IMG/VR virus record: IMGVR_UViG_2875713109_000001
Reading direction: 5' to 3' (one strand)
DNA from: a virus
Taxonomy: Duplodnaviria; Heunggongvirae; Uroviricota; Caudoviricetes
DNA: 64,000 nucleotides
Shown piece by piece: positions 38,247 to 38,312 of this stretch. How positions within the stretch are numbered: the first letter of the stretch is position 1; each line of letters begins with the position of its first letter. Position numbers and translations under genes: made by a program. Under the pieces are notes generated by a model. It saw nothing but the letters and a program-made list of their open reading frames with translations, was not told the origin of the DNA and did not search any database.

Positions 38247-38263
38247 ATTGCTCTAATAATTCC
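38247..38263 (+). promoter_or_regulatory. C1 operator-like site
   Basis: attgctctaataattcc, 14/17. Confidence 0.5.
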
Positions 38264-38274
38264 ATATTTTTAAA

Positions 38275-38302
38275 ACGTGATGTACACTCATCACGTTTTT
38301 TA
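38275..38302 (+). terminator. rho-independent terminator
   Basis: acgtgatg-tacact-catcacgt hairpin followed by tttttt. Confidence 0.55.
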
Positions 38303-38312
38303 TTAGAGCAAT
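38296..38312 (-). promoter_or_regulatory. C1 operator-like site (inverted relative to 38247)
   Basis: ttttttattagagcaat, 14/17 to reverse-complement consensus. Confidence 0.5.

Follow-up and report, generated by a model that had tools for sequence, protein, structure and literature searches.

What is the role of a short interval in which two inverted repressor sites enclose a hairpin between two groups of genes in a tailed phage? The interval occupies positions 38247-38312 of a 64,000-nt stretch of viral DNA (IMG/VR record IMGVR_UViG_2875713109_000001), the whole of which is referred to here as the window. A sequence-only reading of the window had proposed that the two sites are C1 operators, that the hairpin is a terminator, and that the arrangement couples termination of one early operon with C1 control of the next. 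We examined this proposal against the annotated genomes of P1 and P7, related loci and published expression data.

The interval is bounded by two catalogued C1 operators

The operators, the adjoining genes and the repressor gene are as follows.

37544-38245, + strand: pmgQ (hdmD in P7), the last gene of the pmgN-pmgO-pmgP-ppp-pmgQ unit, with its TAA stop at 38243-38245
38247-38263, + strand: C1 operator a, ATTGCTCTAATAATTCC (P1 OpmgRa, former Op86a), starting 1 base past the pmgQ stop
38312-38296, - strand: C1 operator b, ATTGCTCTAATAAAAAA (P1 OpmgRb, former Op86b), overlapping a T6 tract
38317-38322, + strand: Shine-Dalgarno-like AAGGTG, read from the sequence, 4 nt before the pmgR start
38327-38545, + strand: pmgR (shtA in P7), 72 codons from the ATG at 38327, first gene of the controlled operon
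38547-39809, + strand: pmgS (shtB in P7), second gene of the controlled operon
52524-53375, - strand: c1 repressor gene, 98.9% identical to P1 C1.100 over 283 aa by tblastn

The region shares 98.6% DNA identity with phage P1. Positions 37500-39000 are 99.6% identical to the P1-like phage RCS47, and positions 37950-38650 are 100% identical to plasmid NZ_MN510447.1. The window represents a P1-type phage that encodes its own C1 repressor. In the P1 record AF234172, both sites are protein_bind features for 'phage repressor C1': OpmgRa at 82152-82168 (+ strand), annotated 'corresponds to former Op86a; controls expression of pmgR and pmgS', and OpmgRb at 82201-82217 (- strand), annotated 'former Op86b'. 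The P7 record annotates the matching pair as Op(sht[a]) and Op(sht[b]). Because window coordinates equal P1 coordinates minus 43905, the limits of the interval coincide exactly with the outer edges of OpmgRa and OpmgRb. The 64-nt element is identical to the P1 and P7 pairs, with the same flanking pmgQ and pmgR genes, orientation and spacing; the element itself shows no differences from P1 OpmgRa/OpmgRb, and the window is another P1-type isolate. The operator pair is thus a rediscovery of a catalogued element and not new: the P1 and P7 reference annotations have listed it since 2003-2004, and the P1 map carried it still earlier under the name Op86. The 'former Op86a/b' labels imply that the sites had been mapped experimentally at an earlier date; a search for 'Op86' returned no P1-related match in the literature searched.

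A 17-bp asymmetric consensus for C1 operators, ATTGCTCTAATAAATTT, and a count of 22 such operators in P1 are quoted in PMC8546580. Operators a and b each match this consensus at 14 of 17 positions, with positions 1-13 perfect. The 13-nt core, ATTGCTCTAATAA, is present as two perfect convergent copies at 38247-38259 (+ strand) and 38300-38312 (- strand). In the 64-kb window we found seven perfect copies of the 13-mer (0.00 expected) and 18 sites with at most two mismatches (2.4 expected), and a chance origin of the matches is excluded. By sequence, both sites are P1-type C1 operators, with C1 binding taken from the GenBank labels.

The two inverted C1 operator-like sites and the hairpin that the sequence-only reading had described are all present where it placed them, accurate to the base: its operator abutting the preceding stop is operator a, 1 base past the pmgQ TAA, and its second, opposite operator on the T-run is operator b, which overlies the T6 tract at 38296-38301. 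Its suggestion that C1 controls the next operon agrees with the annotation of OpmgRa/b, with the P7 pair and with the presence of c1 in the window. In this respect the locus serves as a positive control, in which C1 operators and their target operon were recognised from sequence alone.

Flanking transcription units

Two further elements bear on the neighbouring units.

35546-35530, - strand: Oppp/Op83, CATGCACTAATTAATTT, matching the consensus at 13 of 17 positions
39831-39864, + strand: terminator-like hairpin GCTGGTGG...CCACCAGC followed by T7, from our own scan (-16.4 kcal/mol), just past the pmgS stop

In the P1 annotation, pmgN-pmgO-pmgP-ppp-pmgQ lies behind a predicted promoter, PpmgN, and the degenerate C1 operator Oppp/Op83. 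This operator was missed by our 13-mer search at up to two mismatches, and such scans therefore under-count C1 operators. Further upstream in P1, pmgL-pmgM lies behind the late promoter LPpmgL and the operator O26/Op82. The upstream unit is therefore mixed early and late, not purely early. The earlier description of the preceding operon as early is correct in that the unit carries the C1 operator Oppp/Op83, but incomplete in that it is also fed by LPpmgL.

On the other side, the hairpin at 39831-39864 is likely the end of the pmgR-pmgS unit. With hairpins on both sides, pmgR-pmgS therefore looks like a bounded two-gene unit. Beyond it lie pap and then the operator OpmgT/Op88 at 40389. The pmgR gene is essential for head-tail joining in P1 (PMC9024508).

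The layout is kept in divergent relatives

The elements between the operators are a hairpin and a T tract.

38272-38299, + strand: hairpin with an 11-bp stem and a 6-nt loop, putative intrinsic terminator of the pmgQ unit; arms AAAACGTGATG (38272-38282) and CATCACGTTTT (38289-38299), loop TACACT (38283-38288)
38296-38301, + strand: T6 tract following the hairpin core, with the 3' arm running into it

A spacer of 12 nt, rich in T, separates operator a from the 11-bp stem. The same layout was found in P1-like plasmids of Salmonella (L008, L009) and in the Cronobacter phage JK004 (L005), in the order stop codon, operator a, 12-nt spacer, 11-bp stem, 6-nt loop, T tract and inverted operator b. The span between the operator cores is 64 nt in P1, the Salmonella plasmids and JK004 alike, and the PmgS proteins of these relatives are only about 69-74% identical. 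Operator b of JK004 has a single mismatch, at position 1.

A search of IMG/VR for pairs of operator cores that converge across a gap of 25-55 nt gave more than 120 loci, and among the matches listed all were this locus. About 25 of the roughly 120 P1-lineage loci listed, which were picked by their operator arms, vary within the 40 nt between the cores. In a sample picked only by the hairpin core, both 13-nt operator cores were unchanged in all 107 complete IMG/VR loci, and variation was confined to operator positions 16-17 and single-base changes in the length of A or T runs. A contig scan with PmgS recovered only two near-identical E. coli loci and added no diversity. More distant PmgS-like matches in Citrobacter plasmids and Pseudomonas phages (about 23-24% identity) were set aside as too remote for an intergenic comparison.

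Candidate promoters lie between the operators

Two promoters can be proposed inside the bracket.

38248-38276, + strand: PpmgR, a sigma-70 promoter annotated as 'predicted', with -35 TTGCTC (38248-38253), a 17-bp spacer and -10 TAAAAC (38271-38276)
38260-38288, + strand: putative alternative promoter, with -35-like TTCCAT (38260-38265), a 17-bp spacer and -10-like TACACT (38283-38288)

The -35 of PpmgR lies within operator a and its -10 within the 5' arm of the hairpin. PpmgR is weak on a generic matrix, at 4.4 bits, a value equalled or bettered at 1.2% of window positions. It matches 7 of 12 consensus positions, and its -10 lacks the conserved T at position 6. This -10 is not kept in JK004, which has TGAAGC there. 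The module of operator, N7 and TTTTTAAAAC to which PpmgR belongs recurs at OpmgT (40389). Neither PpmgR nor the hairpin was detected when 37400-39000 was scanned for consensus promoters and terminators; PpmgR was missed because its promoter match is only 7/12, and the hairpin because its longest possible stem pairs four of the six T's with the upstream A4.

In the alternative promoter, the hairpin loop would serve as the -10, and the -35-like hexamer shares bases with operator a at its 3' end. This was the top match of a rough matrix scan in all three lineages, with 5.6 bits here and 8.2 bits in JK004 (TTTACT-16-TATCAT). Its geometry, with the -35 at the 3' end of the operator, resembles that of three P1 promoters that do not carry the 'predicted' label, Plpa, P2c4 and P4cre. 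All 20 variants share T1, A2 and T6 of the loop, and it is positions 3-5 that vary. At the sequence level, this conservation follows the pattern of a -10 hexamer and suggests a promoter other than the annotated PpmgR.

Separately, we observed that the loop reads TAnnnT in every lineage, as TACACT in P1 and as TATCAT in the Salmonella plasmids and JK004 (L005 2236-2241; L008 2238-2243). OpmgT/Op88 (40389-40418) and OpmgRa (38247-38276) share ATTGCTCTAATAA-N7-TTTTTAAAAC with equal spacing, and each sits against the stop codon of the gene before it. TAnnnn is found at operator positions 25-30 in six forward operators of the window, mostly without the usual final T.

Two other candidates were rejected. 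By eye, 38150-38330 holds no box like the -22 boxes of LPpmgL, LPhot and LPpac, which speaks against a late (Lpa-dependent) promoter. A TCTAAT inside the operator, comparable to P53/Op53, was considered as a -10, and its nearest -35-like hexamer, TTGAGC, is 20 bp away.

Expression data point to a promoter in this region. Table S1 of PMC8201110 reports RNA-seq of a P1vir infection in which C1 is antagonised; it tabulates log fold changes per gene, whose normalisation for length is uncertain and which gauge termination only indirectly. For pmgO-pmgQ these values are 6.9-7.4 at 10 min and 11.3-11.8 at 30 min, with pmgQ at 11.66 after a rise of 4.6. Those of pmgR are 9.0 and 10.8 (a rise of 1.8), and those of pmgS are 10.0 and 11.70 (a rise of 1.7). 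At 10 min, pmgR and pmgS thus stand 2-3 log units above pmgQ, with the two candidate promoters between the operators lying in between. For pmgS, this step is too large for an effect of gene length, and we therefore place an early promoter between pmgQ and pmgS. Furthermore, pmgR and pmgS rise like hrdC, dmt, parA and pmgT, early genes without late promoters (PMC8201110). Knocking down pmgO-pmgQ by CRISPRi is tolerated, even though pmgR is an essential gene; this agrees weakly with a separate promoter for pmgR, because the knock-down of pmgR itself was missed as well.

Whichever candidate is used, transcription would start at about 38283 or about 38295, in both cases downstream of the 5' arm of the hairpin, and operator b would cover +1 to +17 or +13 to +29. 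The sequence-only reading had set operator b ahead of the next operon and had missed the candidates inside the bracket. With the promoter inside, operator b would instead lie at or downstream of the start site.

The operator pair differs in geometry from other C1-regulated promoters

OpmgT/Op88, Olpa/Op94, Oc4/Op51, OrepL/Op53 and the bivalent Oc1ab/Op99ab of P1 all use the same 17-bp asymmetric site overlapping a sigma-70 promoter. Those operators are single sites, or two overlapping sites if bivalent, whereas here two separate monovalent sites converge at 49 bp centre to centre with the hairpin between them. C1 binds asymmetric sites as a monomer, and looping has been reported for the Op99 sites. 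A promoter between two operators is also known from gal (OE and OI) and from lac (O1 and auxiliary operators). The likeness is in a promoter core with a repressor site on either side, one of which falls past the start; the distance of 49 bp between OpmgRa and OpmgRb is, however, far shorter than that in gal.

It has to be considered whether operator b acts mainly as a roadblock, at which bound C1 halts polymerase that escapes the terminator in the lysogen, and not as the occlusion partner of operator a. The site is downstream of both candidate starts and directly on the T tract, and the P1 notes use the wording 'controls expression' for operator a only. However, the upstream unit is itself under C1 operators (Op82 and Op83) and lpa is also C1-controlled, so that little read-through would need blocking in a lysogen. 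The strictly kept 64-nt span, moreover, suggests a geometric pair. We regard a predominant roadblock role as unlikely, and it is not mutually exclusive with promoter occlusion by operator b.

The hairpin is a probable intrinsic terminator

The hairpin begins 27 nt past the stop of pmgQ, which closes a unit also read from the + strand. For the inner hairpin we obtained a folding energy of -13.4 kcal/mol (z = -6.5), matched by 0 of 200 shuffles. Its 7-bp core alone, with four G-C pairs, gives a modest -8.5 kcal/mol and is followed by U6; read as an 11-bp stem it gives -12.9 and leaves only UUAUU downstream, four of the six U's being able to pair with the upstream A4. An Rfam search of 37800-38800 at a permissive threshold returned no family. 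No terminator is marked between 70000 and 94800 in the P1 GenBank record, even where genes converge, and its silence at the hairpin is therefore uninformative.

The stem arms are AAAACGTGATG/CATCACGTTTT in P1 and AAAACATGGTG/CACCATGTTTT in the Salmonella plasmids, and the differences include two compensatory pair replacements, one from G-C to A-U and one from A-U to G-C. The proportion of paired cells across 20 distinct variants is 96.8%, compared with 38-72% when the partner strand is slid, and 0 of 500 shuffles reached the observed covariation score. The T6 tract is invariant in this alignment. The compensatory changes are confined to one clade (Salmonella/JK004) and hence represent few events, perhaps only two. 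These comparative data support a selected RNA structure.

In the P1vir data, the rise from 10 to 30 min is 4.6 in pmgQ and only 1.8 and 1.7 in pmgR and pmgS, and the late boost therefore ends at the pmgQ/pmgR boundary. An end at this junction is what a terminator predicts and, at the level of whole genes, is consistent with one. We infer that the hairpin is the intrinsic terminator of the upstream pmgN-pmgQ unit because the layout is kept in relatives, the stem has undergone compensatory changes and the late rise in P1vir RNA-seq ends here. The terminator named by the sequence-only reading, absent from the P1 annotation, is thus probable, supported by compensatory changes in divergent relatives and, indirectly, by the RNA-seq. 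In common with Rho-independent terminators that have an upstream A tract, the element has a stem-loop, a U tract after the last stop of the unit and an A4 that mirrors the U run. It differs from typical ones in its short stem core (7 bp, four G-C) and in being nested in a promoter-operator complex. A terminator role on the - strand is unlikely: read in that direction, the hairpin is followed by a run of only four T's before A's set in, and the region has no converging - strand gene.

The palindrome might instead not be a terminator at all, but carry the -10, form the site of another dimeric regulator or act as a stabilising RNA structure, with read-through passing freely. The invariant loop positions T1, A2 and T6 beside variable positions 3-5 favour such a role, as does the best score of the loop-based promoter in all three lineages; however, a -10 box needs no flanking 11-bp stem, and the compensatory changes keep pairing, not sequence. 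A weak stem core, partial sequestration of the T tract and the silence of the consensus scan also speak for it, but the T tract does not vary and stands where a terminator needs it. Most one-sided variants, moreover, are G-U-compatible on the + strand (11 wobble versus 7 unpaired cells). At 30 min, pmgS is as high as pmgQ (11.70 and 11.66), as free read-through would allow, yet the late boost stops at the pmgQ/pmgR boundary. On balance, a palindrome without terminator function appears improbable.

Folding of the 66-nt interval as a whole (-26.9 kcal/mol, z = -8.9), with perfect pairing of the 13-nt arms, could also mean that the outer inverted repeat is a mere extension of the RNA stem, as in a bipartite terminator or processing hairpin, and matches C1 sites incidentally, but we consider this highly implausible: the arms are a motif with seven perfect copies in the window, elsewhere as single copies at promoters, they are annotated as C1 sites in P1 and P7, they are sequence-invariant and show no covariation, unlike the inner stem, and polymerase reaches the 3' arm only once it has passed the T tract. 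Since the cores are invariant and the stem is variable, the operator cores appear to be under tighter sequence constraint than the stem, as would be expected for protein sites beside an RNA structure.

Proposed mechanism

Taken as a whole, the interval very probably forms the regulatory boundary at which one transcription unit of a P1-type prophage gives way to the next. In the lysogen, C1 encoded by the phage itself would occupy both operators and keep pmgR-pmgS silent. When C1 is inactive, an early promoter between pmgQ and pmgS fires, a step that the P1vir RNA-seq supports. This promoter would lie between the operators, with operator a over its -35 region and operator b over its start or over roughly the first 30 nt transcribed. 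The hairpin and T tract would stop late, LPpmgL-driven transcription from entering pmgR-pmgS. As both candidate -10 boxes are in the hairpin, transcripts of pmgR would lack the 5' arm and so escape termination; RNA born at the junction would form no hairpin and would read into pmgR.

A more specific form of this junction is a one-way valve with the -10 in the hairpin, at which transcripts from pmgQ would stop, hairpin-born transcripts would proceed, and two convergent C1 monomers 49 bp apart would act as a clamp. We put this forward tentatively, as possible but doubtful. We found no description of promoter-terminator nesting at Op86 in the literature searched, the P1 genome paper lying outside its scope. 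The 'coupling' of termination with C1 control that the sequence-only reading proposed amounts so far to a juxtaposition.

Beyond the known operators, the residual point is a conserved hairpin that is unmarked in the P1 record and in which both candidate -10 boxes are embedded. If the nesting is real, it would explain how the early, C1-controlled pmgR-pmgS is insulated from a unit upstream that is driven by a late promoter. It would also offer phage engineers a compact 66-bp part that combines an insulator with a repressible promoter.

Other observations in the window

Between the pacB stop and the c1 stop, the window has about 1.7 kb (50799-52524) compared with 26 bp in reference P1. This insert holds a 371-aa ORF (51376-52491, + strand) with ORF6N and ANT/KilAC antirepressor domains, and a C1 operator-like CTTGCTCTAATAAATTG with one mismatch (50802-50818) abuts the pacB stop. 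The ORF may represent an additional antirepressor-like cargo gene beside c1, possibly under C1 control.

About 35 nt downstream of OpmgT, a G+C-rich hairpin, CATGCCGC/GCGGCATG (40431-40476, - strand; -14.1 kcal/mol), has a T run on the - strand only, and no - strand gene is evident nearby. The stretch at about 40640-44580 does not align with reference P1, which has about 0.64 kb of the pmgT-pmgV region in its place, and it contains several ORFs of 120-240 aa. The region from pmgT to humD is among the variable regions of P1-like phage-plasmids (PMC9603915).
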